A stretch of 62,561 nucleotides of DNA, filler included, from Dugesia japonica (lineage: Eukaryota): assembly GCA_001938525.1 (NCBI GenBank). It is 5 parts of 5 records of this genome, joined end to end, with 100 filler letters (N's around TTAATTAATTAA, not from the genome) between each part and the next. Parts side by side here need not be neighbours in the genome. Positions count along the whole stretch, not along the records: positions 22,499 to 37,330 come from MQRL01611074.1; 4 more parts are not named here. The stretch is one strand, 5' to 3'. Below, in pieces: positions 961 through 55,605 of the stretch. The position numbers were made by a program, and so were the translations under genes. Under the pieces are notes generated by a model. The model had not been told where the DNA came from. It saw only the letters and a list, made by a program, of their open reading frames with translations, and made no database searches. Within the stretch, counting starts at the first letter, position 1. Each line of letters begins with the position of its first letter.

Positions 961-1330
961 CTACTTTGGTGCTCCAAATCTCAGGATCCATTTTTCCATC
1001 ATCACGTTTTTAATTGTCTCTTGCTTGCTTATTGCCTTTAGGCTTACGTATCGACTGTATTGGTCTATTATTCCACATATATATTTTCTTCTGTTCACAG
1101 TCTCTTGAAAAGGCTCACATATGTCCATATATATCTTTTCAAATGGACAGTTTGCGCTTAATTTTACTGTTGTCTCTTTTGTTGCCACCGTAATTACTTT
1201 ATTCTTTGGCAGGCTTTACACTGTCTTATTACTTCTGTGATTGTCTTCTTCAGTTCTTCCATGTCGTAGTTGTAGATTATTTAGCTGCTACGGAACTCCT
1301 CAGTGAATAAGCATCTTTTGTATCTTGAGA
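961..1330 (-). mobile_element. Ty3/Gypsy integrase fragment (degenerate)
   Basis: CKAC (frameshifted end of the zinc-binding region) precedes PFEKIYMDICEPF...KYICGIIDQYSRYVSLKAI...WILRFGAPK, the start of the rve catalytic core. Confidence 0.9.
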
Positions 1331-12222: not shown

Positions 12223-13573
12223 TTCTAAAACGAAATCAAAATATACGGTATTTTAAAAAATATTTTATAAATTAAAAACAGTTTGACTTGTTTTAATGGA
12301 GTGTTTGTTTTCTATACTGTATGCTGATTGGTGATAAGTAATATCGAACAAATAATTCACTAATTTAATATTAACATTCTCATCTTAACTGTTTGAAAGT
12401 TAAATAAGTGAATATTATTTACTCAGTAGCTGAAGGTTTTCAAATGTCATAAAAAATTTATTATCAGAATATTGTGAGATGTACGATCGTATTTCAAATT
12501 TGTGAGCAGATAAATTATGAGATTTTATTAAACTTTACACTGTTTATTTATCATGTGAAACCATAAAGAGCATTATTATGATATCCAACTTTACTTAAAC
12601 TTTTTTATAGTTTCAGTTTCATTTATGTAACCGATGAATACTTTTATTTCTCTTCTGGAATTATAGATTCAAGAACACTGACTCTCTGATCAACTAGGAA
12701 CTTCTGTTTTTGTTGTTTTTCTAAGACTTGTTTTACGATCAACAAAAATCTATATTTATTTTAACATTGATATGCATTGTTAGAGTTTAACGTTTGGGTT
12801 TTAAGTCTGAACCATGCAACCATATTTAGCCATCAATAATTGTTGCGCTTGTATTTATCATTATAAGCTCATCGTTTTCACAATAATGTTGAGGTAAAAC
12901 ACTTGATATATGAAGATAATAATAGCGATAGGTAGAGACAAAATCGGAGAGAATGATTTAAGGAAGAAAAATAAAGAAACCAGAAAATATGAAGTCAAAG
13001 ATCATTTAAAGAAATAAGTAATGAAAGAAAACCAAGATTTAGGAATTAAACCATGCAATAACCAGTAAAACCTTGAAACAAAAAGGGAAACAACTTGGAA
13101 ATGAGGAAANCAAAGAATAAAAAAATGATAGAAGCAGACTGAGAAGATAAAGAAAAACGGCTAATAATAACTGCAGCAAATATTTCATTAAGAAGAATAA
13201 AGAAAATTGATTTTTGATTTTGTTTTGATCGAAGCTTTATCTTATTTTAATGAAAAGAAAATTGAATTAAATTAATAATTAAAGAGGGAATAAATAATTT
13301 AAATGAATTATTTATCGAATTAAAATAAATTTCAGCTTGGAAACGAATAATGCCAATTTAATTAACAAATTAATTGAAAAGAATGTTGGGACAGAACCCA
13401 ACCACATCTGATTATCTTTACGGAATAGTGAGCAATTAAATCTATAATTGGCGGTAAAAGATAAATATTTCGTCATTAAAACAATTATTTATTAAATAAA
13501 ACGTTTCATCGACACAAAACCCACAATCTNNNNNNNNNNNNNNNNNNNNNNNNNNNNNNNNNNNNNNNNNNNN

Positions 13574-13923: not shown

Positions 13924-15027
13924 GCCAAGAAAGAAGAAGTAGTTCATTTAAAAACTCTAACAAATATATTGAATGAACCAAAGTCTTCAGAATACAGTTG
14001 CCCTCAGTGTAACAAGGGCTATACATTTAAAAAAGCTCTTGTGAATCATTTATATATATGTGATCCAAAATATCAAGAACCGCTTCATTATATTCCTTGT
14101 AACTGTCCAATCCAGAATATTCATTCACTTTGTTCTCTTGATCAACATATTAGTAGTGTCCATGCTGACCAATATCACTATATATGTGGCATTTGTTTCG
14201 TAGAATTGTCTAAATCTGCTGAGTTATTTGAACATTTGTTTTTAAAACATGATTACTTATGGGACACATATAATGAATCTCCAATGGTTAAATTAAAAGA
14301 TGAAAATATTAATTTAAGTAACATGGGAGAAGATACAAATAAAGCTTCAGATTTCACAAGTAAGTATTCTGATGCTGGTGAATCTAGTAATAGTATTTTG
14401 GAAAATTGTCGTTTCGATTCTGAAAACGACGGAACTCCATTAAATCTTAAACCCAGTGTAAAACAAGCTTTCGTTAAATTAAACGATGAAAATATTAATT
14501 TAAGTAACATGGGAGAAGATACAAATAAAGCTTCAAGTGTCACGAGTAGATATTCTGATGCTGGTAATTCTAGTAATAGTAATTTGGAAAATTGTCGTTT
14601 CGATTCTGAAAACGACGGAACTCCATTAAATCTTAAACCCAGTGTAAAAGAAGCTTTCGTTAAATTAAAAGATGAAAATATTAATTTAAGTAACATGGGA
14701 GAAGATACAAATAAAGCTTCAAGTGTCACGAGTAGNTATTCTGATGCTGGTGATTCTAGTAAAAGTAATTTGGAAAATTGTCGTTTACATTCTGAAAACG
14801 ACGGAACTCCATTAAATATTAAGCCCGGTGTAAAACGAGCTTTTAAAGAAATTTCCCAAACAAAAACAAGTTCCTTTAAAAAGCCTAAGTTTGAAATGAC
14901 GAATTGTACTTCATCGAATTCTATCCCCATCGATCTCAACATGATTGTCATTTGTCCGGTTTGTGAAGGTCGGTATTTATCTGAAAAGGTTCTCAAAAGT
15001 CACATGGAGCGATATCATTCTCAATAG
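13924..15027 (+). CDS. C2H2 zinc-finger protein, terminal exon, with three 62-aa tandem repeats
   Basis: Acceptor tttttag|GCC in frame. Fingers CPQC..HLYIC, CNC..HISSVH, CGIC..HLFLKH and C-terminal CPVC..HMERYH. 5' exon not identified. Confidence 0.88.
   Translation, partial: AKKEEVVHLKTLTNILNEPKSSEYSCPQCNKGYTFKKALVNHLYICDPKYQEPLHYIPCNCPIQNIHSLCSLDQHISSVHADQYHYICGICFVELSKSAELFEHLFLKHDYLWDTYNESPMVKLKDENINLSNMGEDTNKASDFTSKYSDAGESSNSILENCRFDSENDGTPLNLKPSVKQAFVKLNDENINLSNMGEDTNKASSVTSRYSDAGNSSNSNLENCRFDSENDGTPLNLKPSVKEAFVKLKDENINLSNMGEDTNKASSVTSXYSDAGDSSKSNLENCRLHSENDGTPLNIKPGVKRAFKEISQTKTSSFKKPKFEMTNCTSSNSIPIDLNMIVICPVCEGRYLSEKVLKSHMERYHSQ
14287..14844 (+). repeat. 186-bp coding tandem repeat x3
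   Basis: GTTAAATTAAA(A/C)GATGAAAAT starts at 14287, 14473 and 14659. Confidence 0.95.
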
Positions 15028-17742: not shown

Positions 17743-20700
17743 CTACGACTTATATGTATTTTTAAAATTTTTTCCATTGGTTTACATTGAAATTTGAAAA
17801 TTTTCCTTTGTTTAGTGTTTTATTTATGTTATATTAAAAAGGCAATATTTTTAAAAAAATTTTAAAATCAATTAAAAAATTATTTTTATATTAAAATTAA
17901 TTTTTAAAAAAATAACATTTAAAAATTTCTTTTAAATTCGTATTAAAAATTTTTTTTATTTTTTTAATATTTTTTAGTTTTTTTTATAAAAATTTATTTA
18001 TTTTAAACATATTATTTATTGATATTGATATAAACTTTTTTTTGTTCAGTGAAAATTTTCATTTAAAATTTAAAAACAAATATTCTTTATTTTAAATTTT
18101 TTTTGTGAAATAAAGATTTTTTAAAAAAAATAATGACCAATCACACAAAAATTTCAACTCGCTTTTCAAAACACACTCACAATCTCATGAAAAGCTTTAC
18201 CAAAACTTTTACAAGTGTTGTGTTATTACTTCCACATAGCTTTCCCAAGCTTCTAGCTTTCTTTGAGTAATTATCGATAAACCGTCTATAGTAAGTTCTT
18301 CACACGTTTTGATCTTCAATTTTTGTTGGATCAGTTCCAACTCCATTCTTGTCTTTTACATGTCCTAAACTTTTAACTTATGCTCGCAAAAAATGACATT
18401 TTTCCGAATTAATTCTCAATTCTGATTTTTGGATTCTATTAAATGTATACCATCATTCCTCTCAATCTTCATAAACCTTTTGTCATGAATTCTCGAAACC
18501 TTGTTATCTATTGGTTCCGTACTGGAACTACCGAGAACTTGCAAACAAATTCGGTTCCACTCACGGCACCATCGAAAGCCACTTGCATGAAATTGGAAAA
18601 GTAAATTGAAGCAGAAATTGGGCCTCCACTAACTAGGCAACCACAAAATGATGCGAGTCTCCAATGGTTCTTCCTTGATTCTTGATTCGATAAAAAATAG
18701 ATGTCACAATAATACTACAAAAAACGNNNNNNNNNNNNNNNNNNNNNNNNNNNNTAACCAATTCTAAAGCTAGAAATTCATGGAAAGAAGATTACGCTTT
18801 GTGTATGGAGCAATATTAGGTAACCAAGAAAGTTCATTTGGTTCATTTCTCGAGAGACAAAGAAAATTAGCAAAAATCAAAATTATTTTAAAAAATAATT
18901 GTTTATTAAAATTGAGAAAAGTATTTTTGTTTTTCATTCTCTCACTGCACACCGGGACACCTAAAATTACGTATTTAGTAGGTTACTGATGAACAATTTG
19001 AAACCAGCTCTCGAGAACCAAAGCCATCTACATCTTCTATTTAAATGATACCAAAACAAGTCCCCCTGGCAGATAATACACGGATATGCCCAAAATATGT
19101 TCACCTGTAATGTGTTAAAGCTAAACAGTAATCTATAAGGTCAGTGACCTATATATGGTTGTTATGACAACGCATACCCCCATTTACTCGAGAAACATTA
19201 AAATTAAATTTTATTTAACATTTATACAAAATAAAAAAAATTATGAAAATAAAGATGTACAAAGAACCCCTTGATTTCATTGACATAACTAATGGATAGC
19301 TCCCTTTTAAGCAATACGTTAAGTAACTAAAATTCAAAATATGTAAATAAAAATAATTATTCCCAATAATTATTAGGAACCACCAAATATTTTTCAAGAG
19401 AAAAAATAATTACAGTAATTATGCAATGTTATGTAAAATAATGCAAAAATAAAATAATTAAAATAATTAATTGATCAAATAATATTAAAAATTTAAAATT
19501 ACAAAAAATAAATTCTTACATAAACAAAAACCTTGTTTAAAATATTCCTCACATTTAGAATGTTGCTTAGTAGAATTGTGAAATTCTCTTTTTCAAAAAT
19601 TCTTCATAAGATAAATATTATTTGAAAGCCTCTTTTCCAACAAAAATTTTAGTATTGTAGTCTATTTTATAGATCATCTTTGTGAAGAAACCAAGGATAT
19701 TTAATAAATATATTTTGTCAATATTCACCAATCCAATGTGCAGATTTTATTTGTAATTCAACATTCAATTCATCTAATTCCAAATGAAATTTTTCATTTC
19801 GATTTCCTTCCTCTTGTTAAATTCATTGTTTTATTTAAATTATTTATTTAAAAAATTTAATATTTGGAAAAGTCAGAGAATTAAATTGTTCATCATGATT
19901 GGAAACCGAATCTTGAAAAATCGCGTCCGTTTTTAATTATCCTTTTGATCAGAATTAGAAATTTCATCTGATATACTTTGGTTAAAATGTTTATCAATCC
20001 AACAAACTAAAGATTTATTAATAATAGATGCCATTTAAAAATATATTCAATGCAAATTAAAAACTTAGAAAAACTCATGTTTAATATATTATTCAAACAA
20101 ATATTCATAAAGTTAAAATAAAATGTAATAAAATTTGTTTTCTTTAATTGGGTATTAATATTAGCTATTTCTACTCAAAATTTAAATAAATTGCAAATAG
20201 TATTTATTAAATATTTTACTGTTTTACATAATGTATTTTTTATGAATTTTCAAATAGTTATAAGCCAATAAAATATTATTTTTCGAAAATTCTTAATTTT
20301 TTTACAAGAAAAAAGTAAGGTATATTATTACCATTCTCATTATTGAACAAAATTTGACGGAGGAGAGTCCACTGACATATTTTGGCGTAGTTCCGTTCAA
20401 CGATAAACTCCTGCAACAACTTATGGCAGTGACGAATGTTGTTGGGAAGGAGAACTCCAGGCCCTAAAATGTTGTGGAAAGCTATAGACATACACACATA
20501 TACATAAACAAGCATAGCAAACAAAATACTCATAATACATCTAGAAATATTAAACAACAATCAAAAAATAATTCATTAACCAATTCAAATCAACTCAAAC
20601 TTCAATAAGATCAAGATCGATTAAGATTATTCATCTTACTCTACAATAATTTGACTATTTATTTGATTCTGATCCTACAATAATTTGACAATTTATTTTA

Positions 20701-24691: not shown

Positions 24692-26076
24692 TAATCAATA
24701 ATAAATAATCTTAAAGAAACAATCACAATCAAATTTTCATTTTTAATAAAATATTAATTTAATTAATTTGAATAATTGAATTATGAAAAATTCATTTCCA
24801 ACAGATTTCATACAACTGATAACAACAATTATTAAAATATGAAATATCTAGATTTATACAATTTCTTATAAAATTATTTAATTATACTCAATATTAAAAA
24901 TTCTTTGCTATTATCAAAATTCTTTTAAAATTTATTGATAAAATTGATTCATTATAANNNNNNNNNNNNNNNNNNNNNNNNNNNNNNNNNNNNNNNNNNN
25001 NNNNNNNNNNNNNNNNNNNNNNNNNNNNNNNNNNNNNNNNNNNNNNNNNNNNNNNNNNNNNNNNNNNNNNNNNNNNNNNNNNNNNNNNNNNNNNNNNNNN
25101 NNNNNNNNNNNTAATTTCCTGATTTTAAATAAATTTTTGATTGTTATTGCTATAATTTAACATTTTGAAGATTGGAATATTTTTAATCAATTTGAAATTT
25201 TTTAATTTCAATCAAAATAAATTACAAAATAGAGAAAGGATAAAAGAATATAGAATGTAACTGCCATTTATTATGATTATTAAATGGAGGTGTATACATT
25301 TAAATAAAAATGAACCATTTTTTAGTTACACATTCGTATTTACTCTATTTTTTAGTAATTCTTTATTACATTTCTTGCATTTTACTGTTTTATTTCTAGA
25401 GTTGGAAACCCTTTAGTACAAATATATTAATGTTGAAAACCAATTAAGTAGTTTTGACAATTATTGTTTCCTTATAAAAATATTGAAATAATAGGTAGAT
25501 AGTGGCGCACTGGATCACTTCCACCCGTTTGTAAAAGTTACTACGTAAGTGATTTAGAACTTTTCAGGCTTTTTAAGTGAGACATACAACTATGTGCATT
25601 ACATAATTGGATTAATTTCGTCGGCGACATTAAAGCATAAGTGATTCAGAAAATCACAATGTAAAAAGGCGACGAGCAAAATTTATTTGCGATTAGATAA
25701 CTTTTGCTCTAATTTTTTCTATTTTACCGAATTATTTTCAAATTTTTACCTTTTCAAGTGACAATATTTTTCAAGATTTTTCTAGGCTTTCAGTATTTCA
25801 GTGTTTAATACTTGTACAATAGTTCAACTTTCTGATTTCTTAAACCTTTCAAAAAATCTTGAATCATTATTTTCTCTTTATTTTTATTGATACTCATGGT
25901 TTAATGAATTCGACGTTCACATACTCAATTGATATTTTTTGGTTATCAAAATCAGGCTAAGACTTGACTTCTTTAACTAAATCCCTTCAAAAAATATTTG
26001 AAAAAATTTTACATTTGACTTCTTCAATTAAGTATCGAATTAATTGTTGAAATATTGCTGTTGGGATGAAACACAC

Positions 26077-26444
26077 CACTAAAGAGAAGGCAAAGCCACC
26101 ACAAATTATAAAATGTTAAAAGAAATAAAAGAATCAAAGATTCAGATGAAAAATACACCAAAGATGGTTAAAAGAAAAAGAAGAATAAAACCTGGTTTGG
26201 AATCAATTAGTGGATGCATAAAAATACGAAAAACCAGTGAAAATAAAACCGGATAATCAAAATCAACATCCATCCATTTAAATCAATTAGAAGAAATTAT
26301 AAATTAATATAATTAGAAGAAAAGAAAATATCTAATAAAACATTTAATTATGAGAAAAATATTAATTAATTAAGTGTTAAAATAAATGAAAATTAAATCC
26401 AAATCCGTTTTTTCTAAATATCTTTGCTGTAAAAAATCCGAGGA
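26077..26444 (+). repeat. ~365-bp direct repeat of 26890-27258
   Basis: Near-identical, about 8 substitutions by eye; the copies diverge after AAAAAATCCGAGGA. Confidence 0.95.
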
Positions 26445-26469
26445 AGTAGTAGGAAAGGAGGACACGAGG

Positions 26470-26594
26470 ACAAAGTAGGTCAAAGGGGGACATATCCCCC
26501 GTTGCCATGGCAACCGTCCTTAGCAACGGAAACTAGGTCAGGGTCGTTTTCATAGCAACCAAAAAGTAGGTCCAGGTCATTGGTTACTATAAAT
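26470..26594 (+). promoter_or_regulatory. cluster of RFX X-boxes, AAA(G/C)TAGGTCA nuclear-receptor half-sites and a TATA box
   Basis: GTTGCCATGGCAAC (26501-26514, perfect palindrome), GTCCTTAGCAAC (26516-26527), GTTTTCATAGCAAC (26546-26559); AAAGTAGGTCA (26472), AAACTAGGTCA (26530), AAAGTAGGTCCAGGTCA (26563); TATAAAT (26588). Confidence 0.7.
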
Positions 26595-28113
26595 TGTTTT
26601 GAACTTTAATTAATTTCAATTTACAGAGATTTCACTGCTTTCGACGAGTTCTCGTGACTCCGTCAATGACAAATTTATCTCAAATTTTAAAGCGAAAAAC
26701 TTGTTACCCCTGATAGATGAAACTGAGAAGAACAGTTCTTACACCTTCTATTATAGCTAGACAGCTATAACAGATTAATTATTAATTATTAATTATTAAA
26801 CATATATTAAAATTTACGTTTTAGTTAATGTCTGCGACANNNNNNNNNNNNNNNNNNNNNNNNNNNNNNNNNNNNNNNNNNNNNNNNNNCCACTAAAGAG
26901 AAGGCAAAGCCGCCACAAATTATAAAATGTTAAAAGAAAGAAAAGAATCAAAGATACAGATGAAAAATACACCAAAGATGGTTAAAAGAAGAAGAAGAAT
27001 AAAACCTGGTTGGGAATCAATTAGTGGATGCATAAAAATACGAAAAACCAGTGAAAATAAAACCGGATAATCAAAACCAACATCCATCCATTTAAATCAA
27101 TTAGAAGAAATTATAAATTATTATAATTAGAAGAAAATAAAATATCTAATAAAACATTTAATTATGAGAAAAATATTAATTAATTAAGTGTTAAAATAAA
27201 TGAAAATTAAATCCAAATCCGTTTTTTCTAAATATCTTTGCTGTAAAAAATCCGAGGAGTTCAGCTTAAGGAAATTTCGGAAGGATTCGGAAGGGGTCAT
27301 CATCCAGAATATTCAGGGAGGATCTTGAAAACTGGACCAATGAAATACCTGAAAAATAAATAAAACAAAGGCACAATTATTATGTGCCGTTCCAAAAATA
27401 ACTGCCAATTGAAACTCCAAAACTCTGAAAATATTTCAGAAAATTGGCAATAGGACCAATAAGAAGCGGTGAACTCTAAACTAAAAATAATTAGCAAATA
27501 CGAACAAAGTTAGGGTGCGAAGAAAACCGTATAAAAGAACTCCAAAAATTATTAAAACACAACTACCAAAATTTTCAACTTCAATTTTACAACAACTATT
27601 TTTCGGAAGTTACCATTTTTCAAAGGCAACAGAAGTGTCCACTGAAATCAACCATTTTTCAAATACAACCAAATTATCAACTGTAAACTTTATCAGTAGA
27701 AAATGATTAATAAAAAAGCGAATTCTTGATTGAAAAAGGAGTTTTGATTACTATCCTACTTATCAAAATAAAGCGTAACCCGTTGTCGTGCAACTAGTTA
27801 CCTACTACGACATTAACAAATAAAATTATATTTTTGGATTGTGGTTTAGTCGATAATTTTCCTTGAAAATAGAAATTATCCATATCGTCGAGGAGTATTG
27901 ATTTTATTCGAAAAATTCAATAAACCATTGAAGAATTTCCTGTGAAAATTATTATTAGTAAGTAGTATGTTTAAATTATGATTATCTACATATTAGTATA
28001 AATTAATAAATGTTTCTGATTTTATTTTGGTTAATCGCTGATAAAATTTTTGTATATTTAATAATTAATTAATGTCCTTATACAGTTTACTCAGGATATA
28101 AGCAGGATCTATA

Positions 28114-28330
28114 ATGGGTGTTATTGATAAAATTGATTAAAACATTCATGGAGTATATGTTGCCATGGAAGTGAAAATTTTGCTAACTAGCATTTTAAAT
28201 CAACAATATATTGGGTCAAGCACTTAATTGAGATAATCGTATGCGGTTGATAAACACACCCAGCAGATTAAGTGTGTATTACGATTTTTCAGCACTGAAA
28301 AAATTTACATCATCCATAAGAAGACGAGTA
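28114..28330 (+). pseudogene. cassette copy 1, ORF0 remnant
   Basis: VKIL...(frameshift)YWVKH...RFFS parallels VKILAIQGEMQSHYWVCH...VRFFS in ORF 52983-53252. Confidence 0.4.
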
Positions 28331-28491
28331 TTTTCCTACTATTTTAAAAAATATTTTTAAATTTTTTTCTTGCATTACAATAACCCAGTTCAGTATTACA
28401 AATTTTTCAGGGTTAATGTGAATGTAGCGGAATAAGATAATCTGTTACAAATTCATTCCCATAAATTATATTAAAATTTACGTTTTAGTTA

Positions 28492-28686
28492 ATGTCTGCG
28501 ACATTAAGGAGTACTCTATATTGGATCAAGAAACAACAAGGAAAGGCTTGTCTAAAGCAAAACTTTGCGCACATATTGTCGCGGGGAATAGTGGAGCATT
28601 CGGACGAAACGGATTTGGCCTGTTTCGCCGAGATGTTTCCCGTGCCAGCAAATATGGATTTAGATGCAAAAAAGGGGTTACATTAA
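28492..28686 (+). CDS. cassette copy 1, ORF1 (64 aa, unknown)
   Basis: HILSRGIVEHSDETDLACFAEMFP aligns with HILFNGIIEHPDETDLRCFAEMYP at 54041-54229; preceded by ttttag. Confidence 0.75.
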   Translation: MSATLRSTLYWIKKQQGKACLKQNFAHILSRGIVEHSDETDLACFAEMFPVPANMDLDAKKGLH

Positions 28687-28825
28687 TTATTGCCGAATTA
28701 AATAAAACTTTCTGTCTTGGGTTTTAGTGATCAGGGAGTAATTGTTCTCGAAAATTTTATAAAAAAAAATATATATATTCGTTTCTTTTATTTGTTGTAT
28801 TAAACTAATTTCTATAACTATAGGA

Positions 28826-29203
28826 ATGAAATCCATTTGGGAGCGAATAGTCGATCGGCGAACGCGACGCATCATCTTTCGATGTCATCATAACCCGCAT
28901 AACCGCGATGCAGGTATCTTGGTAGAACGAACTAACCTGCCTCCTGTAGATGCCGTGGTAGCTCGCATTCAGAGCTTCGGGGAAAGATTGGACTACCAAC
29001 AATGGAATGGCCCAACGCGAAATCACACTACCCCTTTTCATTATCAGGCTCCGGCCCCTCTCCCAGTGGTGCAAGCGTTTATCAATAACTTGCTCTGGGT
29101 GTTAGGGAACTCTCGGGGGTTGAGGACACGGAAAACACGGTCCCTGCTACGGACACAGCCTCTAACTTATAGTGCCTATCTTAATTGTCATAAAAATTTA
29201 TAA
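28826..29203 (+). CDS. cassette copy 1, ORF2 (~115-125 aa, unknown)
   Basis: HNPHNRDA, WNGP and AF.NN.LW..NS blocks shared with 54396-54816. A likely late frameshift in the G-run near 29115 restores ENTVPATDTASNL, matching ENTATPSSNS in copy 2. Confidence 0.75.
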   Translation: MKSIWERIVDRRTRRIIFRCHHNPHNRDAGILVERTNLPPVDAVVARIQSFGERLDYQQWNGPTRNHTTPFHYQAPAPLPVVQAFINNLLWVLGNSRGLRTRKTRSLLRTQPLTYSAYLNCHKNL

Positions 29204-29382
29204 ATAAATATGTGTTTCTATTTAATAGTAATCTAATTCATTCTGTTCATTATTTTATTGAGGAAACAAAATTTTTCTTTTGTTTGTTTTTTGTTGTTAA
29301 TAATAATAAAATTGCGGTCTGCTACTAAGGAAACAAGAGTCTCGAGTACTTTCTTAACGTAGTTAATGTATACTCTTTTGCA

Positions 29383-29766
29383 GTGCATTCGTCGCTGAAC
29401 CGCTCTACAGCTCACACCAAAAATATGAGGGATACCAGCGAGGACCAAGAGATGACTTGGGACCTCTACCGGCTTGCGAAGCGACGCTGGGAAGCAGAAA
29501 TAGCCGCCGCGAATAGTAAGGTATCTCGGTACAAGAAAAAGTGTATCGTCTTTAAAAAGGAAGCCGAGGCCTCCTACTTGCAGGAGGGAGCATGGAAAAA
29601 ACAGGTCGAGTCCTTTGCGGAAATCATCCGGTCCAGCCATGGCCGAGAGAATAAACTGGTTGATGATGTCTTACATCTCAGAGAAATGATACCTCTCGAG
29701 CATTTGATGATCATAACCCCGCATGTGTTCTTAAATAAATGTATCACGAATTTGACATTGTTTTAG
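29383..29766 (+). CDS. cassette copy 1, ORF3 (charged, predicted coiled-coil; begins at a splice acceptor)
   Basis: ttttgcag|TG CAT. VHSSL...QEMTWDLY..KRRWEA...SKV.RYK.KC.VFKKE.EAS is shared with 54982-55324. Confidence 0.75.
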   Translation: MHSSLNRSTAHTKNMRDTSEDQEMTWDLYRLAKRRWEAEIAAANSKVSRYKKKCIVFKKEAEASYLQEGAWKKQVESFAEIIRSSHGRENKLVDDVLHLREMIPLEHLMIITPHVFLNKCITNLTLF

Positions 29767-29816
29767 TATCTGATACTTCTGATTAAACTATCTGTTCATT
29801 AATTTAATTTCTTTTA

Positions 29817-30152
29817 GTGCCCCGCATCAACTTTCCCAATAGTATTCGTAGATGTCATCGCATAATGCGCCGTCTGCTTCTAGAGCGCCACTTAAAGCAG
29901 AAAGCTGATAGGGCATTGATTAAACATCTTGACCAGCGAGATCGTCTGATCAAAAAACTTGATCAGATTGTGAAAATGCAGCATGACCTGGCAGTGCAAG
30001 CCAAAGCATTTGAAGATGAAAATAAATTGTTGCTTCAGAGGAAAGTTGATTTTCTTAAGCAATATATATCCGACCTCTCCCGTCAATTTGGAAACCCTAC
30101 TGGGTCCAATGGGACGACAACGACGATGTCGCCGCCTTCAATTTCTTGGTAA
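29817..30152 (+). CDS. cassette copy 1, ORF4 (basic N-terminus, predicted coiled-coil; begins at a splice acceptor)
   Basis: cttttag|TG CCC. VPRI...HRI...LLLERH.K....RAL..HL is shared with 55488-55605. Confidence 0.72.
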   Translation: MPRINFPNSIRRCHRIMRRLLLERHLKQKADRALIKHLDQRDRLIKKLDQIVKMQHDLAVQAKAFEDENKLLLQRKVDFLKQYISDLSRQFGNPTGSNGTTTTMSPPSISW

Positions 30153-30439
30153 CCGACCCAGATCAGTGGTTAGATCCTAGCGCGTTGGGAGAGATGTAAT
30201 TGTTATGATAATAGAACTTTTTGACTAGTTTTCTTTGCATCGTATGTACAAGTTAAGGGAAAGATATGGACCCAAACTATAGGTGTACGGGTGTGCACCT
30301 CTCATAAAGTAAGAGGTCAACCCCCCTACACTGAAAGCCTAAATAAGGGACTTTAGGTTAAATTCTTGAAGGGGTCCTCTGAGGGCTGTTTTTCCCCAGC
30401 CTCAAGTTTTCATCACTCAACTCAGGTGGAACCCCAACA

Positions 30440-31925
30440 TTGCGAATAAAGTTGCTATTGAATCGATTGAATGTGAAGATTGTGTGGTGGAAGAAATATA
30501 AGATGAAAACATTATATAATGAAGTAATGCACTCTATGAGAATGGAGATAGAGATTATGTATATAATAATCAGAGTTACAAATGACAATATAAACATAAA
30601 TATAAAGAAGGATTTAAAGGTTTCAAATCTAATGGAGTTGGATACATTGCAAAATTCTGTAAAATTAATAAGTTTTTCAACAATGGAGAAAATCATTTAA
30701 TAAAATTTAGGGAAAACAAAAACTTTCAGTATTGTTAAACAGAAGACGATGGAAATATCTCAAATATACAATGTAGAAGAAAATACTTCAAAAGATTTAA
30801 TATTCAATATTTTTAATGAAATTATTAGCTCGAAAACGATTCAAAAGACTTCAGATTATTTGTAAGATTATTCATCAGGAAAACCTCAATTAAACATGCG
30901 TGGTCATCAAATAGAACCAAAAGACTTTAGCGGGTTTTCCAGAAAAGACAGATGTATTGGATAATTATGTAAGTTATATTAATGAACACGGTGTAAAGCC
31001 CAAATCAATAATTAGAAAATATGAACCTAATTTGATTTCAATGTCAAGAAAGGAAGTTACAAGAATTAAACGCATTGTTGAATGTCAACTAAAAGAAGAG
31101 GAAATCCGAATAATGTTCGATATTTGTGCTGATCTCAATGTAATCAACGAAACATTAGCAAAAAGATTAGTGAAACAAAATTATGATCTGAAAATTCAAA
31201 ATTCGACAACTAGAGTGACTTGTGAGAATGGAAACTTAGTAAATTGTTTAGAAAAACTAACTCTAAAAGAGACTTATTAATAAGTGTCAGTTTGGTGAAG
31301 AGTTATTCTAGATATATTCTTATCAGAATATACATACTCAATGGAGGATCTAAAACCTTGTATACAGAAACAACTTTAGGTTGTGTGGAACGATTGGAAG
31401 AAAATATAACAAAAGAAGATTTATACCTCAGAAATTTATCGAATTATCAAATCAAGGTTGATAATTCAGATACTGCCAGAATTTTGAATGATATTGAATT
31501 GCAACTGAAAAATGAAAGAAAAGAATCGAAAATTATGGCACTAATGAGAATAATTGTATGATAATTTAAATGTTTTCAGTAAGCATAAAATGAATATTTA
31601 AAGAACAAATGCCATTTAATATGCTTTAGAAACAAAGAATGATTTTTTCATAGTATTTAAACCCCAAAAAAAACCAAAATGTGTAGAAAATAAAGTTTGA
31701 AAAAAATTAAAGAACTTTAAGAAAACGATAATATAAGAGAAAGTACTCCACTTAGTTTCCCACCTGTGTTTGTTAGAAAAAGGAATGAAGAAATAAGAAT
31801 GTGCGTTGATTATAAGTCTTAAAATGCAAAAATATCTTGACCAATTTTTACCATTCCATCTGCTAATGAATTATTTGATACAGTTTCTGATTCAATTTAT
31901 TCCGCAAGTCTAGATAAGGAATCTG
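30440..31925 (+). mobile_element. degenerate Ty3/Gypsy (gag?)-protease-RT fragment
   Basis: Retropepsin-like EIRIMFDICADLNVINETLA; RT start IRESTP..PPVFVRKRNEEIRMCVDYK..F.IPSANELFD....SLD, with stops and frameshifts. The gag assignment for 30440-30950 is positional only. Confidence 0.85.
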
Positions 31926-34899
31926 ATAAGGAATTTGAATGCATAACATTGCGCGGCTTTACTTTGCGTGTCTATTGATACCAAATTTGTGACTGTTTAA
32001 TAAGAATTGTAGATATGTTGGGTTGCCAGGCTTTTGATGTTGATTTATACTCGATCTCCTGAGTTTTATTACCATTCTTCTGATCACCATTTTCGTTTTC
32101 ATAGATATAATTTCTGTCTGGGGATGATACCCAGCAACCACAGAAATTTGTGTTACTCTTTCTAATAACACGATCCCCCATTTCCCGGATTCAGCGGGAC
32201 TATGCTGTATCCCGTCTTAGGTTCCAATTTCTATCCGGCTCTCGTTTTATAATTAAACGTCATTAGCCATTATTAACTCCTGCTATAATCAAAAATTGAG
32301 AAATACAATCTGTACAAAATTTTATTCGTATCCATATTTATNNNNNNNNNNNNNNNNNNNNNNNNNNNNNNNNNNNNNNNNNNNNNNNNNNAAATACAAT
32401 CTGTACAAAATTTTATTCGTATCCATATTTATCACCCGTCCAATGTTTCTCATGCATCCAATTCAGTGACTTCCTGAACTGCTCCCTTTGAGATTCCATT
32501 CTCCGACTTCGAAACTTGTGCTATGTCGTGTATTTTATTGCGAGACATCCATCCTTCTCCGAATAACGACTGATCCATTAGCCAGCTTCGCTATCAATGA
32601 TATAAACATTTTAAATATTCGTATCATAATTTCTCTAGAATAATAAATAAATAACGATTGATAATAAAATGAGTAATATTTTCATAAACATTCACAATAT
32701 ACGTAATATAATAATTAACATAAGCAGTTTAATAAATATTTCATCAGAGTCAAGATTAATAAGAGTCAGAATCCAATTAATCAGTTAGGATTCAACCACC
32801 CCACCACTCGTAGTCATAGACATTCAACTTTCATATTTTATAACCATTTATACACACTGATAGTTTTATTTGTTTTCTTCTTCATTTAAATCAACTAAAA
32901 CATGACTTTTAATTCAATACTTTATTTCAATTACAATTAATTCTTTTTTGAAATTCTTCTTTCCTTTTGAACGCTTCTTTCAAAACTTGCCTTTCTAAAT
33001 TTATATTTTTGAATAAATAATAAATTTAAATAAATTTATTATATTTATTAAAAATATATTTTTTAAATCTAAAACTTCGAATTTACACTAATTTAAAAAA
33101 TAAAGCAATAAATTTTAATTATTAAAATTTTTTATAATTATTTACATTAAAAAATTTAAGCTAATAACATTGCATTAAATTTTTAAATATTTGCAAATTT
33201 TTAAAATTACCTAACACACACTATCATTCGTTCATAATTCATCTCTCATATCCTTTTAGATAATCACTTCATTTTACTTCTCGAACCATAATACAACATC
33301 TTTCATCTTTCATCTCTCACAACTCGCAGTCTTTCATAAACATCTTTCAGAAATCTCTCTCAACTTTTTATAAATACCTTTCTCAGCTTTTATAATCTTT
33401 AACATCTTTTATCCCTCATAATATAATGGTGGATGATCTCCCCAGGAAGTAGCTGATAAGATGGACCGTCAGAGATAGCAGAACTACCCTCAGACTATCC
33501 ATCCTTCAGTGTCTTCCAAATAAAACCAGTTAAAAATAACATAACATAAAAATAAAAAGAATCCTTACTTCTTCTTCGGCTAGTTGTTCCAATTAAATTG
33601 CTAATGGTGTTTCAATGGAAATTTTTAAGAGTGTTTTTCTAATGATTTTGATTTCCTTTTTTTCCTCACTCTATCGTCAAATTTTGACTGATACAGTTGG
33701 CGTCCACTTCAGATTTCTGTTAATACAAGAAATCGTACGTTGTTCACCCGTAGCTTCTACAGAGATGTCTAAATATGGGCGTGATTATTTTTATTTTTTT
33801 TTAATTCTGTAGTGGATTATGTGCTCACAGATGTTCTATGTGTTTTTCCTCAAGTGGAGAGGCTTAAAAAAAAATTTCTGAAACTTGTAAGTGTTTTAGA
33901 AATAGCGATAACTCCACAATCACATACAAATATAAACATATCAATCCTATATTCTCACAAAAAATCATCATATCTTCTACATATAAGTTTCGGTTATAAT
34001 TCTTCCGGGTTCATTATAAATAATAATATTTATTGAATAATAATAATTTTAATTATATTTATCGATAATAATAATAATTTCTCATTTTATATTTTTTATA
34101 AAATTATAATAATAATGTTATTCTTGTACTTAAACCTGACTCATAATCTATTATTTTATTATTTATAACGATCATGATAATTTATTCTGTTTTTCCTCCT
34201 ATAATTTCTCTCTAAAATATCAAAATATTTTAATATAATTATTTGTTTTAATCTTTCTTTTTCTCTCATCAATATACTTTTATTTTTAACACATGGATAC
34301 TTTCAACACATTTATACAAATTATAAATAATAATAGATATTCCTTCTTGTATTACCATTCTTCTTTTCGATCCCTTTGACTTATTTTCTGAGCACATTTT
34401 ACCTTAGCCATCTAATTATTGATTATCTTCANNNNNNNNNNNNNNNNNNNNNNNNNNNNNNNNNNNNNNNNNNNNNNNNNNNNNNNNNNNNNNNNNNNNN
34501 NNNNNNNNNNNNNNNTAGATTTTGTTTGATATTTCTTACACTTTTTAACTTCAGTTATTATTATTTAATAATCGTTTCCTTATTATTTCATAGGTCAATA
34601 TTTCTTTTATTTCTCATTATTTATTTATTTATTATTTTTTTAATTCATTTTCTTATTACTCTTTAATTTATTTCCTTCTATAATTTTCATATTTTACAAA
34701 AGGCTGTTTAAGCCCAACAGATAATACAAACGAAAAACAAAAAAAATTGATGACCTTGAAAAAATTTTCCCTAGGGAGGGAGGTGCGGTTGAAAAAATAA
34801 AAGTATAATTATTTTAAATAAAATTCTATGACCTTGAAAAAAAATTTTAAAAAATAAAAAAATTTCAAAAATAAAAAAAAATCCCCTAATTTTTTTAGC

Positions 34900-41362: not shown

Positions 41363-43840
41363 ATGGCAACCACGTTACAGTAAATACGATGGCAAAGAAA
41401 GAAAAGATATGAAAGACAAAAATATTTTTCGAAATTACTGTCTTAAACTCAAGAGTTATTAATTCCAAAGCCGATTTTCTTTGATGGATCATCAGATACA
41501 GCTAAAGAGTGGCTTCAAACAACAAAAAAGTTAGCGCCGTTCAATCAGATGGATTTATTATTTGCTTTTGATATACTAATGCTCGACGATGTTAAGTAAT
41601 TGTGGTTGGAAAAAACAAAAGAAGTTGAGAAATTATCTAATGAAATTTGTGAATGTTGGTTTCAAGAATCATTTGTAATTTAGGAAATATTTGTTGATAA
41701 AGCGTCGACCTTGTCAAAAATAATGCAGAAACCAAAATAAAAATATCGAAATTTTGAAATTAGAGTTAGAATGTTAGTAATGAAGTATTTTGAAGTAAGA
41801 AGTCATTAGATGAAACAGCTACACGGTTTATAACTAATGGCATACGTATCGAAAAGTTGGAGGAATTATTTATCCTCCAACCAGAGATAACAGATATCCA
41901 ACGAAGAGAATTGGATAACTAAATTTAAAAACCTGATACCTAACTTTCTGTAAGTATGGTGAAAGAGAGTTATGCTGATTCATTAAAAAAAAATATATCC
42001 ACCCAAATTTGGAAACAATCACCCGAAGATAAGTGTTTAAAGGGACACAAATATTAGAGACCGGCAAAATCTACATTTCAAACAAAGCAAGCCCACATAT
42101 ATATACAAGGCCAGTACAATAATTTCACGCAGTATTCTTTGAAACGTTTAGCAAACAAACTATATTGTAAGGCTAAAGGGAAGATACCGCCGCGAAACAA
42201 ATTCCTAAAGACGAGCATGTTTTTGCTGTAGAAAAAGTAGCCATAAAAGGATGAATTACCCATTAAAAGAAAAATGCTTAGTTTGTGGAAAGGAAGGTCA
42301 TAGATTTTTGGATTGTTTATTAAATCGAGTAAAAGATTTTTCGGTGTCTAAAGTTTTGTGTATTGCAGAAGAGGATGATAATTGGTCCTGTACAAGGGAA
42401 TTGATAGATTATATACATGATGTCCATACAGACGATGGTGATATCAAAAATACGATTGACAACTCACTGCAATAATCGATAGTAAAACTAGAATTGTAAA
42501 AATAATTTTTGACAAAAAAAGTTATTTCAAAAAAAGATGGAGGTGCAGCACACGGGGATGCTGACAAACTTTTAAGAATAAGCAAAAGTTGGTGTTCACA
42601 ATGTCAGACGTCACATCAAGATGCCAAGGGAGAACGAGCTCGGGTTACAAAAAATCAATGCATTAGATAAAATATTTTTGAGAAATGTCGTATCAAATAA
42701 ATACGAAGAAATGATTTGGTACTAGAGAAATGATTGAATATTTATAAAACCGAAAAGGTGATAGTAAGCTATGGTGACGAAAAGTAACTGCTTTTCAAAA
42801 ATGAATAAATTTGAGATGAATAATGAGCTGTGAAAATAATAAAATAACAAAAAGAAAATAGGATTTGCAGGGCAATCGATACTCGAACTTTATAATTTTA
42901 TTCACGCGGAATTATATCACGAGGGAAGTCAAAATCTGACAGAATATTTAAATGTTTGTTATTTTTGGCCAAATATGAAACAGATTGTAGAACACCAATT
43001 AAAAAGATTTATGATAGAAAGACATGCACTGGTAGAATGAAAGAGTGTCTGATTCCAAGAACAGAGTTTGGGCCTTTAGAACAGGTTGTGATTGATATTG
43101 CTCATTTTTCTGAAGCACAAACTAAGAGAAAGTATCTTCTCGTGATGTTTGACAGATTTGGTAAGTTAGTTTGTTTTGCAGCATTGAATAAACAGAATGA
43201 AAAGTAAGTTGTTGATGAGATACAATGAACAAGGGATATGTCGATTTGGGAAACAAAAGTTATTTTTAACTGATAGAGGAAAGATTTATGAAGGAAATTT
43301 AATGTAATCACTTGTGGATAAATTTGAGATAAAACAAGAGTTTACATTCTCATATCAACATCAATGAAATGGCTTATCAGAAAGAAGCATCAGAACTTTG
43401 AGAAATAAGATGGTAATAACGATAAAAATGGATGCTCGGAAGCAAGCTGGGACAAATTATTACCAAGAATACAATTTGCTATGGATGTGACGCAACATGA
43501 ATCAACTGGATTATCTCCTTTTGAAATCATTCCTGGAAGGTGATGTAATGGTAGTTTTTAATTTTAAGATGAGTGGTATAAATTTCGAACCGACATCGTT
43601 TAAAATGGCACCAATTTTAAATTTAAATCTTTAATACTTTTTAATTCTCTATCCGATGTTGTTAATCATGACCTTAAAAAAAGAAAGAAAATATCGATAT
43701 CGTTGGGAAAAAATCGATGATCTCCAAAACAAATTTGATAAAATATCAAAAATAAAAATAACGGGAAACCATCGACTCAAAAAATTTTTCTCGACAGGGG
43801 GGGGGATTGTGGCATGCTGACATTTCTCACTACTTTAGAT
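41363..43840 (+). mobile_element. internally deleted Ty3/Gypsy element in the MFS intron
   Basis: gag knuckle CLVCGKEGHRFLDC; RNase H end HGDADKL; integrase GPLEQVVIDIAHF..YLLVMFDRFGK, NGLSERSIRTL, WDKLLPRIQFA...HESTGLSPFEI; PPT at 43796 followed by TG. Confidence 0.9.
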
Positions 43841-51259: not shown

Positions 51260-52080
51260 TTACAATAAATGGATTGTTTGTTTTAAGAACTTCTGATACT
51301 TTTTTTCTAATTTAAAAAGTAGTTCTACAAAATTCTTACTTGCTTCTTCACTAGAATATCTCAAGTATTCAGATATTATTAAATTTTCATAGATATTTAT
51401 AATATATGTGTTGAAGTGAAACACCTGAACGATATAGAAGAGAAAAGCCAAGGGCGCCAAGAACGTAAAATCAGGAAGAAAGGAGTCATAAAGATAGTCA
51501 ATTAAGAAGAAGTAAATGAAGCAAAAAGTACAGTATTTTTCTGATAAAAAAATGAGTGAAACAATTACAAATGATTAAAAATATAGCAAATGAAAAAGAA
51601 AAAGAGATACTAGTTGGTAGATGAACTAAATTAACCCTCTCCAGTGCTAATGATTAAAGAAAAATATTAAATTAATATTAAAATAGGAAAAATGATTATT
51701 GGAAAAATGTTTAATTATCAAAAAAATATTAATTATTTTGGAACAAAAATGAATTTAAATTAGGCCAAAATTGGTTATTCAAGAATATCTCCACTCAGAA
51801 GAATCACACGGACTCATAACAAGAAAATCTAAAAAGAAAAGGTTAAGAAGCATAAAGATTTCGCAATAAGAAAATTCTGTCACCATCAAAAGGACCACCA
51901 CAAGAGTTAAAAAAATGGGCCAATAACAGTTCAAGAAATAAAAATAAAACAAAGAACAACAGATCACATGGTGACTTAAAAATAGTTACCAATGTAAACC
52001 CTCAAAACTGTCAAAATTATCTAAAATTTGGCACAAACACCAACCAAGAACAAGAATTTCAAATTAAAAATAGCAGCCAA
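51260..52080 (-). pseudogene. cassette copy 2: degenerate hydrophobic antisense ORF
   Basis: WCLCQILDNFDSFEGLHW*LFLSHHVICCSLFYFYF, INIFLIIK, LYDSFL and YLRYSSEE align with copy 1. Confidence 0.55.
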
Positions 52081-52851
52081 TAGCATTGGTGTCAAGATGC
52101 AACGAAGACGCTCCGAATTTTAGAGGAACAAACAACTTAAAAACTGATATTACTCAATATAAACCACGTTATAAAACAATAACTCAAATTAGTGAGATAC
52201 CAGTGAAATAAATCAGTATATCACCCTCGAAATTTGTGAGAATTAAAGTTATTAAACAGTGTACTATTAATCGTCAGTGGAAACAATTTGTGTGAAAACT
52301 CTCAGCAACATATTACTAGAGAAAAGCGTAAGACAGAAATCATCATCAATTATTTTTAGTTGAAATAACTCTGTGATTGTAGAAGAAAATTCTCAGTCAG
52401 TGAAACAGCAGAATTTAATTAAAGCTAAATATACGACTATCTCGTAATTCAGTGGAAATCGATTCATAATTGTTCAACTCGTTGCAGAAAATATTTATAA
52501 AGAAGTGAGTAGTGATTTTAAATTGGTTATTTCTGTCAATGTTATATTATGCGTTAATAAAAATTTATTCTATGTAAACTGTCTATTTTTTAAAATGTGT
52601 AATAAATCATTTATTTATAGTAAATTAATGCCAATATCCAATGTCAACCCGTTGAGATACATACCAACTTGTATTTACCAACCTCACCAATGATTTTCCG
52701 AATTGACTTGATATAATGTTTACTCAGCAGGTGATCAATGTACTTATCTATTCACGAACCCTGTACATTAGTAGCAAAAAAACCATCTATTCCATACCGC
52801 AACCGAGTTGCATCACACATGAAGTAACAACGCCGATAATTCATTTCGACC

Positions 52852-52852
<1 letters not shown>

Positions 52853-52882
<30 letters not shown>
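52853..52882. repeat. (TA)n microsatellite
   Basis: About 15 TA units. Confidence 0.95.
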
Positions 52883-52885
<3 letters not shown>

Positions 52886-52982
52886 CACTCTATCAATCGT
52901 AAGCCATATCAAGTCCAGGAAATTACCATTTAAATGAATACACACCTCACTTCAGACACTGACAATTTATGAATCACCTAGG

Positions 52983-53252
52983 GTGCTACATACCAACAAT
53001 AATTCCTCAGTAAAAATACTTGCAATACAAGGAGAGATGCAATCACATTATTGGGTGTGTCACTTTCACCATGACATCTGTTCGCCGTTAATGTTCTACA
53101 CGAATATTGTTATTCAACACGTACGGTTCTTTTCTGAATTATCGGCATCACTATCACTAAAAAAATTTGTTAATAACATTAGTAGTGATCAATTGAGACG
53201 TGTTTCAGTAGTGTATTGTCCTGACTATTATAGAAATAACCCTCTCGGGTGA
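52983..53252 (+). CDS. cassette copy 2, ORF0 (unknown; start uncertain)
   Basis: 89-codon open frame, weakly homologous to 28114-28330. Confidence 0.4.
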   Translation: MLHTNNNSSVKILAIQGEMQSHYWVCHFHHDICSPLMFYTNIVIQHVRFFSELSASLSLKKFVNNISSDQLRRVSVVYCPDYYRNNPLG

Positions 53253-54040
53253 ATTCATGCATCGATATTCCCTTATTTAGACGATCGACAAAACATACAT
53301 TGGCAATTCAATCACTGAGATGAATATGACTTTTACCTATATCATGATTTAAGATCATCAAAATAAGTACGAGTATCTATCATCTGTTATCGACATTATT
53401 ACTTTATTAAATATTAACCTTAAAATGATTTCGACCAATATCCATGAGTCAAACTGGATTAGTAGCATTACTAAGAAAAGATTCCGTGCGAAAAAACATG
53501 ATAATCTGCCGTGATTTCAGATAGTAGAATCATCTCAATTAAATATAATGAAATTTTCCACCAAGTTATAATTATTAGTATTATTTATTAATATTATTAG
53601 TAATCTTATTATTATTATTCTTAATATTATCCTTAGAATTATTATATTGATTAACAACATAATTATTAGCATTATTATCACGCTATATTTGTATCATTAT
53701 TATGGGATGCGGTTCCAATTTTTAATAAAAAGGATGATATGATCGTTATGCGTATCTGGCCGATCGATGATCGAGCCGCCCCTCTCAGTAAAATCAAGGG
53801 AACCAGTATGGCTTTTACTGTTAATATTGCTACTAAAATACCGTTACTGAGGGCCACTGGCAACGTTAGACTATTCTCAATGTAAACTCTGAATGACACA
53901 ATATAAGAACTTTTATCAGTAATGCTTTTAGAACCAAAAAACAAACACAACGAGAAATTACTTTTAAACCATCGATGTCGAATAAAATGAACTCTTTAAA
54001 AATTTATTTTATTATTATATTTGTTAGGTAATCAAGCGGT

Positions 54041-54229
54041 ATGTCCAAACTCTTTTTAAAAACGTTAAGGTTGATCGGAGCCGAAAGACGTAAACCTCGG
54101 AGGAAGCAACTTTTACCCCACATCCTATTTAATGGCATAATTGAACATCCCGACGAAACAGATCTGCGGTGTTTCGCCGAGATGTACCCCTTAAACTTTA
54201 ATATTGACATCGATGATGAGGGAGACTAA
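54041..54229 (+). CDS. cassette copy 2, ORF1 (62 aa)
   Basis: Intact homolog of 28492-28686. Confidence 0.75.
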   Translation: MSKLFLKTLRLIGAERRKPRRKQLLPHILFNGIIEHPDETDLRCFAEMYPLNFNIDIDDEGD

Positions 54230-54395
54230 TTATCTGATAGGTTGTAACTGATTACTATCGAATCTTTTATGAAATAAATGTGAATTAAATTATTGGTTCT
54301 AATTAGTATCTAATGCTCTTGTGAGTCATTTTGTTCTATTATTAATTTCGATTGGTATATATCGATTCGTTATCAATTTAGGTCGTTAAGTAATT

Positions 54396-54816
54396 ATGGA
54401 ATTTAAATGGGAGATAGTTTTGGACCGAATTTTTAGGCGGACCATTTTTAAACATTAACATAACCCGCACAACCGTGATGCTAGGGTGTTGGCCGACTAC
54501 TCAAACCTATCGCAGGAGGGTGCAGAAAATGAGATAGTGAAACGCTGCTGAGCGTCATTATTTTTACATGTGGAACGGTCCCGATCGTACAAGGGCCATA
54601 TACCATGCGGTTCCAATTGCAACCGTAAATCGAGATGGCGTACCCCAGATTATTCGCGAATGGCACGAAGGACCCGCGATCGTAATGGTCACAACAAATC
54701 ATCTTCCACCAGCATATAACCTTGCAGCATTCGTCCATAATAATTTGTGGACTATAAGGAATTCGTCCGAAAGTATTAATGATGAGAATACTGCCACCCC
54801 TTCAAGTAACTCGTGA
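54396..54816 (+). pseudogene. cassette copy 2, ORF2 (stops and frameshift)
   Basis: MEFKWEIVLDRIFRRTIFKH*HNPHNRDA...WNGPDR...AFVHNNLWTIRNS. Confidence 0.75.
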
Positions 54817-54981
54817 ATGTTCGTTTTTATCTGCGCATACAATTAAATAAACGTTTTATCACGTTAAAATCAATTTAATTTTCGTATTTGCCTTGCGCTT
54901 GTTTGTTTACTGAACTAAAAAATTAACTTCGATTCATTATCTTTATTGTTTAAATTTAGTTAAATTGAATTTTCTTTTGTA

Positions 54982-55324
54982 GTGCATTCCTCACTCATCC
55001 GTGCTATGGCTCCCACTAAGAAAATACGTGAAGACAACGAGAACCAAGAGATGACTTAGGACCTGTACTGTCTAGTAAAAAGACGATGGGAAGCAAACGT
55101 CGCCAATTCCGCTAGTAAAGTGAAAAGATATAAGACCAAGTGCCTCGTTTTTAAAAAGGAAGTCGAAGCCTCAATTACCAAAGGGCGGGTGTGGAGAAGA
55201 CAGGTAGAGTCCTTCGCACCATGACCGAGAGAATAAACTGGTCAGCGACATTCTACATCTCAAAGAAAAAACGCCTCTTGAACCCCTAATGGTTGATAAG
55301 AGTACTCAAACTACGCGAACGTAA
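54982..55324 (+). pseudogene. cassette copy 2, ORF3 (premature stop, small deletion)
   Basis: ttttgtag|VHSSLIRAMAPTKKIREDNENQEMT*DLYCLVKRRWEA...QVESFA; TGG>TAG at 55057. Confidence 0.8.
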
Positions 55325-55487
55325 TCACTATTGTGTGGTTCGTCTCTGTAAATAAAGGCTCTTCGTGTAAATAAAACTTGTTTCATTCATCGATTTCATT
55401 TCATTTTATTGATAATAATTATTTGTTCTGTAAACTTTAAGGCTATTGTGGTCTTTTGAATTGATATTTAATATCTGAATTATTTTA

Positions 55488-55605
55488 GTGCCACGAATCC
55501 AATTAATCCGTAGTTTAAGACAAAGTCATCGTATAATTCAGAAGTTGCTGCTCGAAAGGCACATTAAACGACAAACAAAGCGTGCCCTATAACGTCACTT
55601 AACTG
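55488..55605 (+). pseudogene. cassette copy 2, ORF4 (truncated)
   Basis: attttag|VPRIQLIRSLRQSHRIIQKLLLERHIKRQTKRAL*RHL. Confidence 0.75.

Follow-up and report, generated by a model that had tools for sequence, protein, structure and literature searches.

The retroviral genes MMTV sag and HIV nef lie in U3, and solo LTRs are usually regarded as regulatory leftovers. The env gene of springer-subclade errantiviruses in Drosophila has a start codon made by splicing (10.1101/2023.08.03.551782), the MDG1 group carries near its 5' end two small accessory ORFs (sORF1 and sORF2) separated by an alternative poly(A) site (PMC11952523), and the foamy virus genes tas and bet are accessory genes with an internal promoter and differential splicing (PMC3185757). 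The giant gypsy-like Burro elements of planarians and Ogre in plants occur in thousands of copies and combine multi-kilobase LTRs with accessory ORFs, the Ogre LTR measuring 1.9-6.5 kb and Burro exceeding 30 kb in total, with an internal region of up to 25 kb (PMC6431247). PMC8532177, PMC11410931 and PMC13465017 contributed nothing about LTR structure. A literature search whose scope excluded Repbase, subscription papers and supplements found no LTR with several acceptor-led ORFs, absence from it not being the same as unpublished, and the primary Burro papers may already describe the LTR discussed below.

The window considered here, meaning the whole 62,561-nucleotide stretch of Dugesia japonica DNA that was analysed, holds on its + strand four small ORFs within a high-copy repeat of ~3.6 kb (copy A; Table 1). 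At a probability that I would put at roughly 55%, these ORFs would be four alternative last exons sharing one non-coding leader, the final A of which would complete the start codon of ORF3 and ORF4 (A/TG, the slash marking the splice junction), and the container is likely a solo LTR.

Table 1. Features of the repeat unit and its copies, in window coordinates.
Feature	Position	Strand	Remarks
Left target-site duplication TTGC	26055..26058	.	same 4-mer at 30440-30443
Unit left end TGTTGGG	26059..26065	+	7-bp inverted match to right end
Copy A first piece, short variant	26059..26839	+	ends at assembly gap 26840-26889
Alternative promoter/donor module of short variant	26445..26802	+	not homologous to long variant
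Copy A main piece, long variant, LTR-like	26890..30439	+	~3,567 bp counting 17 bases lost in gap
Predicted promoter	27296..27560	+	block conserved with copy B (z 9.8)
Predicted non-coding leader exon	27561..27957	+	ATG-poor; putative start site
Predicted shared splice donor A/GTAAGTAGT	27957..27966	+	copy B: A/GTGAGTAGT at 52504
ORF1	28492..28686	+	64 aa, own ATG, acceptor (last G) 28488, AATAAA 28701
ORF2	28826..29203	+	own ATG, acceptor 28823, AATAAA 29203
ORF3	29384..29766	+	phase 1 from acceptor 29383, begins TG, AATAAA 29734
ORF4	29818..30152	+	phase 1 from acceptor 29817, begins TG
GC-richer tail	30153..30439	+	AAA/GTAAGA donor-like at 30308, AATAAG at 30342, ends CCCAACA
Unit right end CCCAACA	last base 30439	+	
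Right target-site duplication TTGC	30440..30443	.	
Copy B, diverged subfamily	51409..55601	+	part order as in copy A
Copy C, lone distant ORF4 relic	20351..20464	-	acceptor G at 20464

Copy A begins with TG and ends with CA, its ends form a short inverted match, and it is flanked by a target-site duplication of 4 bp, within the 4-6 bp range of LTR elements; the 11-mer joining CCCAACA to TTGC occurs once in the whole window. Together, these three features are hallmarks of retroviral-type integration. The unit is also dispersed and multi-copy, with three copies or relics in the window and 3,405 matching contigs in run X1 (its kind is not on record, and it behaves as DNA), 1,848 of them at 90-95% identity. 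Summed X1 depth, which is not a copy number, drops by about three orders at the right end, from 35,338 in the bin 30365-30479 to 49 and 24 beyond it. The first 242 bp and the last 291 bp of copy A share no similarity, the inverted match being just 7 bp, the frames of the unit have no integrase or transposase match in Pfam, and neither a primer-binding site nor a polypurine tract nor gag-pol could be linked to it. Evidence for a U3-R-U5 order consists of promoter-like motifs and hexamers, with no read starts or ends marking it in the sparse RNA (20 reads). Ginger-type TIR DNA transposons, which also make a 4-bp duplication, have terminal inverted repeats tens to hundreds of bases long as well as an integrase-like transposase, and were rejected on the 7-bp match and the missing integrase or transposase. 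Long inverted repeats and a transposase are both lacking, and a solo LTR of ~3.57 kb is the simplest interpretation; from these features I consider it quite probable that the unit is the LTR of an LTR retrotransposon, and copy A is most likely a solo LTR of ~3.6 kb.

Judged by the substitutions separating copies A and B, all four ORFs are under coding constraint, with pS of 0.55-0.86 against pN of 0.17-0.35 in all six segments tested, a pattern that is lost in the shifted-frame controls of ORF3 and ORF4. Apart from one relative of ORF1, the four proteins are orphans. This relative, found by an ORF1 profile search, is the 60-aa Logan protein P0001, which starts at the same Met as ORF1 and is the single one found for any of the four; homolog searches with ORF1, ORF3 and ORF4 returned no match, those with ORF2 returned no relative (best E 0.59 and 0.77), and Pfam searches of the frames of the unit gave just weak coiled-coil-type matches under the cut-off. 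An atlas search produced generic matches with low recognition for ORF3 and none for P0001, and a 24-base ORF1 pattern was absent from the metagenome contigs. Another candidate relative, L001, was discarded as a chance similarity, lying antisense to an NRPS-like gene. The predicted structure of ORF1 is a low-confidence arrangement of three helices (pLDDT 55.5), while ORF3 and ORF4 look coiled-coil-like by inspection; it is speculative to regard the proteins as accessory factors of the element, either regulators or counter-defence.

The original prediction placed a splice acceptor before each ORF in both copies, and all eight are present, their last G in copy B standing at 54027, 54381, 54982 and 55488 (ORF1-4). 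Its claim that ORF3 and ORF4 are conserved from the acceptor itself was borne out as well: A-B identity rises abruptly at both AGs, where of the 30 positions on either side 9 upstream and 22 downstream match at ORF3 (P=0.002), and 8 and 18 at ORF4 (P=0.02), and copy C keeps the ORF4 acceptor in the same register. The predicted acceptors of ORF3 and ORF4 exceed chance. Those of ORF1 and ORF2 are weak taken alone because an acceptor-like site stands within 15 nt of 123 of the 952 ATGs in the window, and the AG-free zones before the acceptors are not significantly long (P ~0.10). The AATAAA positions that had been listed proved right for the three of Table 1 and for 54273 and 54846, the last, given as 55352, really being 55351; a hexamer downstream of every ORF was found for ORF1-3 but not for ORF4, after whose stop the nearest approach to a poly(A) signal within the unit is the AATAAG of the tail. 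Five of the six hexamers lie 15-44 nt past the conserved-frame stop, which for ORF2 of copy A means the stop in the frame that corresponds to the tail of B (a frame change near 29090-29100 sets copy A apart from the C-terminus of B, and the present frame of A ends on the hexamer), and the sixth, at 29734, lies 32 nt before the present ORF3 stop of copy A, aligned with B's hexamer. The chance of an AATAAA is ~0.18 per site in AT-rich 50-nt windows and 0.03-0.07 in shuffled spacers (the starts of the A2 and A3 spacers were set by hand); the enrichment is modest but real.

Over the 22 codons of ORF3 that precede its first shared ATG, the differences between A and B fall 4/5/11 by codon position (P=0.04), and over the first 37 codons of ORF4, again without a shared ATG, they fall 18/7/25 (P=0.002). 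Being codon-conserved from the acceptor onwards without a shared ATG, both ORFs must therefore receive their start from upstream. No ATG occurs in the loose-end letters that X1 and X3 show at the N-terminal part of ORF3. TG directly follows all four ORF3 and ORF4 acceptors of copies A and B, as against 29 of 465 acceptor-like sites; copy C, with a 61-codon open frame that lacks an ATG, has GG there, leaving TG kept in two of three ORF4 copies and at four of five ORF3/ORF4 acceptors. The acceptors of ORF1 and ORF2 have no TG after them, and both of these ORFs possess their own ATG.

Upstream of ORF1, a donor with the consensus A/GTRAGTAGT is common to both copies, at 27957 and, colinearly, at 52504; this 10-mer was chosen after seeing both copies. 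GTRAGT occurs once in the unit of copy A (27958), twice in B and 17 times on the + strand of the window, and as background an A precedes 18 of 51 GTRAG sites. The 200 bp around the donor are conserved between A and B (1/300 shuffles as good), and no such conservation is seen in the leader or the far intron; homology of the donor rests on colinearity because the region is not the best local match in the middle of B or in the window. Before the donor there are no ATGs in 407 nt of copy B and one in 575 nt of copy A, where 6-7 would be expected (P 0.0002 and 0.009, or 0.009 and 0.035 with empirical window rates), and the stretches after the donor contain 11 and 10. The predicted promoter includes CCAAT boxes at 27337, 27405 and 27456, the first two aligned with those of B. 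Rfam and tRNA searches gave no matches, and the predicted folding of leader and tail does not surpass that of shuffled sequences (z -0.9 and -1.0). Counting against the main reading, the TATA box TATAAAAG at 27530 exists in copy A only, an assembly gap lies inside copy A, and B lacks a right end.

The 27957-type donor closes no ATG-led phase-1 frame (in-frame stops stand 11 and 1 codons upstream) and it ends in A, so that the upstream coding exon once thought necessary for ORF3 and ORF4 is probably not needed. Because the donors follow an A and the acceptors are followed by TG, splicing would create A/TG in frame, and the joined codon would have A at -3 with both donors. RNA would start from the CCAAT/TATA promoter near 27300-27560, the donor at 27957 would be joined to one of the four acceptors, and the transcript would be cleaved behind the selected ORF for ORF1-3 and within the tail for ORF4. 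Translation of ORF1 and ORF2 would begin at their own ATG, and ORF3 and ORF4 would be startable only after splicing. Since this start would exist only after splicing, unspliced or wrongly spliced RNA would make neither protein. Against this scheme, any full-length RNA must bypass the poly(A) signals inside the LTR. The earlier idea that one promoter yields several proteins thus survives in the form of alternative last exons, which fit the evidence, but not in its ORF2 donor and coding-exon parts, and no junction read was found. The TG...CA container with its target-site duplication had escaped that earlier account. Among 24 runs no RNA run was listed as a holder of the sequence, and four of them, X1 and three raw RNA runs, were aligned to it. 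The RNA runs X2, X3 and X6 (6-25% of each read) supplied 20 matching reads (2, 16 and 2), all <95% alike and from diverged copies; none is spliced, and they are too few for a test. X1 contains 10 joints, none with GT..AG ends, which look like deletions or divergence in DNA.

The alternative that survives best, although I find it rather unlikely, accepts the unit as an LTR and takes the ORFs as U3 accessory genes of the 3' LTR, with the donor elsewhere, either at 30308 in the 5' LTR or as a leader/gag donor of the missing internal region, following the pattern of complex retroviruses. The AAA/GTAAGA at 30308 makes a good donor with a final A, 34 nt before the AATAAG near the right end, the tail (30153-30439) is among the most deeply covered parts of the unit in X1, and foamy viruses carry a donor in R as well as an ORF that extends into the 3' LTR (PMC3185757). 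However, the conserved promoter block, the ATG-poor leader and the donor upstream of ORF1 would be left unexplained, X3 reads cross 30250-30388 without a joint, and copy B is without the tail, so that A alone shows the site. A donor at 30308 can coexist with the leader-and-last-exon arrangement.

An operon is also an unlikely reading of the cassette; in that case a spliced leader would be trans-spliced to every acceptor, in step with cleavage of the RNA at the AATAAA before it, as the distance from AATAAA to the next acceptor (83-180 nt in six of six spacers) might suggest. Nematode operons have a similar hexamer-to-acceptor spacing. Spliced leaders ending in NUG can supply start codons (PMC9851317), and a leader ending in G would give an in-frame GUG here. 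Against this stand the conserved cis donor and the short frames that an AUG-ending leader would open, namely 4, 15, 23 and 5 codons at A3, A4, B3 and B4; this range of only 4-23 codons at ORF3 and ORF4 agrees with the preference of the original prediction for cis- over trans-splicing. In the 20 RNA reads, no acceptor carries a joint or loose end of the kind sought for a spliced leader.

ORF3 and ORF4 might instead be downstream exons of fusion proteins, entered in phase 1 from a donor in ORF2 (28913) or ORF3 (29515) with a split codon for Val or Gly, which I regard as quite unlikely. The donor GCAG/GTATCT that had been claimed in ORF2 does exist at 28913 in copy A, in frame with the ATG of ORF2, and the GG of copy C would be tolerated, but the aligned place in copy B reads GG, the N-terminal block of ORF2 has no GT common to A and B, and ORF2 is conserved beyond 28913 (WNGP and NNLW blocks). 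Inside ORF3 a weaker phase-1 GT is common to both copies (29515/55114), yet its conservation may stem only from a Ser-Lys pair kept in both copies, and ORF3 itself could not be started from it. Very unlikely, finally, is that the unit is not an LTR and instead represents a virus relic or a DNA element that is non-autonomous and mobilised by an integrase, or that its splice and poly(A) signals are chance products of AT-rich spacers (22-26% GC), for although no internal region is linked to the unit and the ORF1/ORF2 acceptors and AG-free zones are not significant, the inverted match spans 7 bp only, a transposase is lacking, and conservation begins sharply at the ORF3 and ORF4 acceptors in two and three copies.

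The first piece of copy A runs from a 5' end (361 of 369 positions identical to 26890-27258) through its own 358-bp middle, in place of the 1,208 bp of the long variant, to the acceptor and start of ORF1. This module contains the perfect palindrome GTTGCCATGGCAAC at 26501 and two more RGCAAC half-sites, which we take to be an RFX X-box, and donor-like AAA/GTAGGT sites at 26474 and 26565 that both end in A; it may be a change of promoter in favour of ciliated cells, or a chimera created by the assembly. An extra acceptor in the short variant, at 26626, opens 43 codons in phase 1, beginning with AG, and the frame is not conserved. Two 5' ends with different middles flank a 50-N gap within one pair of target-site duplications (26059-26889), which at most hints at a direct-repeat pair and may represent a collapsed full-length element, tandem or nested LTRs, or misassembly. 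Copy B has a left end similar to that of A (TGTTG..TGAAACAC at 51409), contains stops and frame changes in ORF2 and ORF3, and is cut off 37 codons into ORF4, no matching right end or target-site duplication being found for this truncated copy. Its predicted first intron, with (TA)n and (ATT)n tracts, is 1,523 bp long (52505-54027), versus 531 bp in A. Copy A departs from the family majority by non-synonymous changes in 18 of 22 in-ORF differences (among the 40 of 180 differences listed), as expected for neutral decay after insertion; copies A, B and C are decaying relics.

The surroundings are those of a gapped draft sequence with retroelement relics and a GC content mostly of 17-33% per kb. 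To the right of the unit (30440-32000) lies a decayed Ty3/gypsy-like gag-protease-RT relic, with RT-like motifs recognized by eye and an Asp_protease_2 match below the cut-off (E 0.002), and to the left (25500-26058) a PBS-like TGGCGC at ~25505. Since the relic is outside the duplication and low-copy, it is probably the insertion target and not the body of the element, that is, an older element into which the unit inserted. Further integrase relics (rve and Integrase_H2C2, below cut-off) lie at 964-1215 (-) and 42843-43204 (+). The window also contains an intron-free 525-codon frame at 5912-7489 (+) with a protein kinase domain (PF00069, E 1e-29), a frame at 13924-15027 (+) that has C2H2 zinc fingers at either end and, between them, three tandem 186-bp repeats, a 270-codon open frame at 11440-12252 (-) with no Pfam match, and a TMEM129-like exon at 57192-57464 (-; PF10272, E 1e-33) in which TT follows a T-rich acceptor and which points to an animal-type host.

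A more tentative extension, which I hold to be possible and less probable than the main reading, is that every solo LTR of the family, which seems to be present in very many copies in this genome, would be a complete four-gene unit, consisting of a promoter, a leader, one donor and four last exons, with the AUG of two genes built by splicing and with promoter modules swapped (CCAAT/TATA versus RFX X-box) while the A-ending donor is kept. If the LTR itself encodes four orphan proteins, such relics would be protein-coding genes spread in high copy, and invisible to gene callers because two of them lack a genomic start codon. If true, this would extend a complex-retrovirus strategy to an invertebrate-type retrotransposon; without the splicing, what remains is an unusual ORF-bearing repeat.

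Returning to the described systems, springer env resembles the predicted arrangement in that a leader spliced to a downstream ORF completes a start codon in an LTR element. There, AU joins G for one gene between pol and the 3' LTR (10.1101/2023.08.03.551782), whereas here A is predicted to join TG in two out of four orphan ORFs that are all enclosed by the TG and CA ends. The MDG1 sORFs are two, lie upstream of gag and appear in long reads without splicing (PMC11952523), unlike the four acceptor-led ORFs here, a comparison made by description and not by sequence. The extra ORFs of Burro and Ogre are described as belonging to the internal region and not the LTR (PMC6431247), in contrast to those described here, which would be in the LTR; again the comparison is by description. 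Foamy viruses possess an internal promoter in env, and only one ORF enters the LTR (PMC3185757), whereas in the unit studied here a single LTR would contain the predicted promoter, the donor and all four ORFs, and these would persist in solo LTRs.
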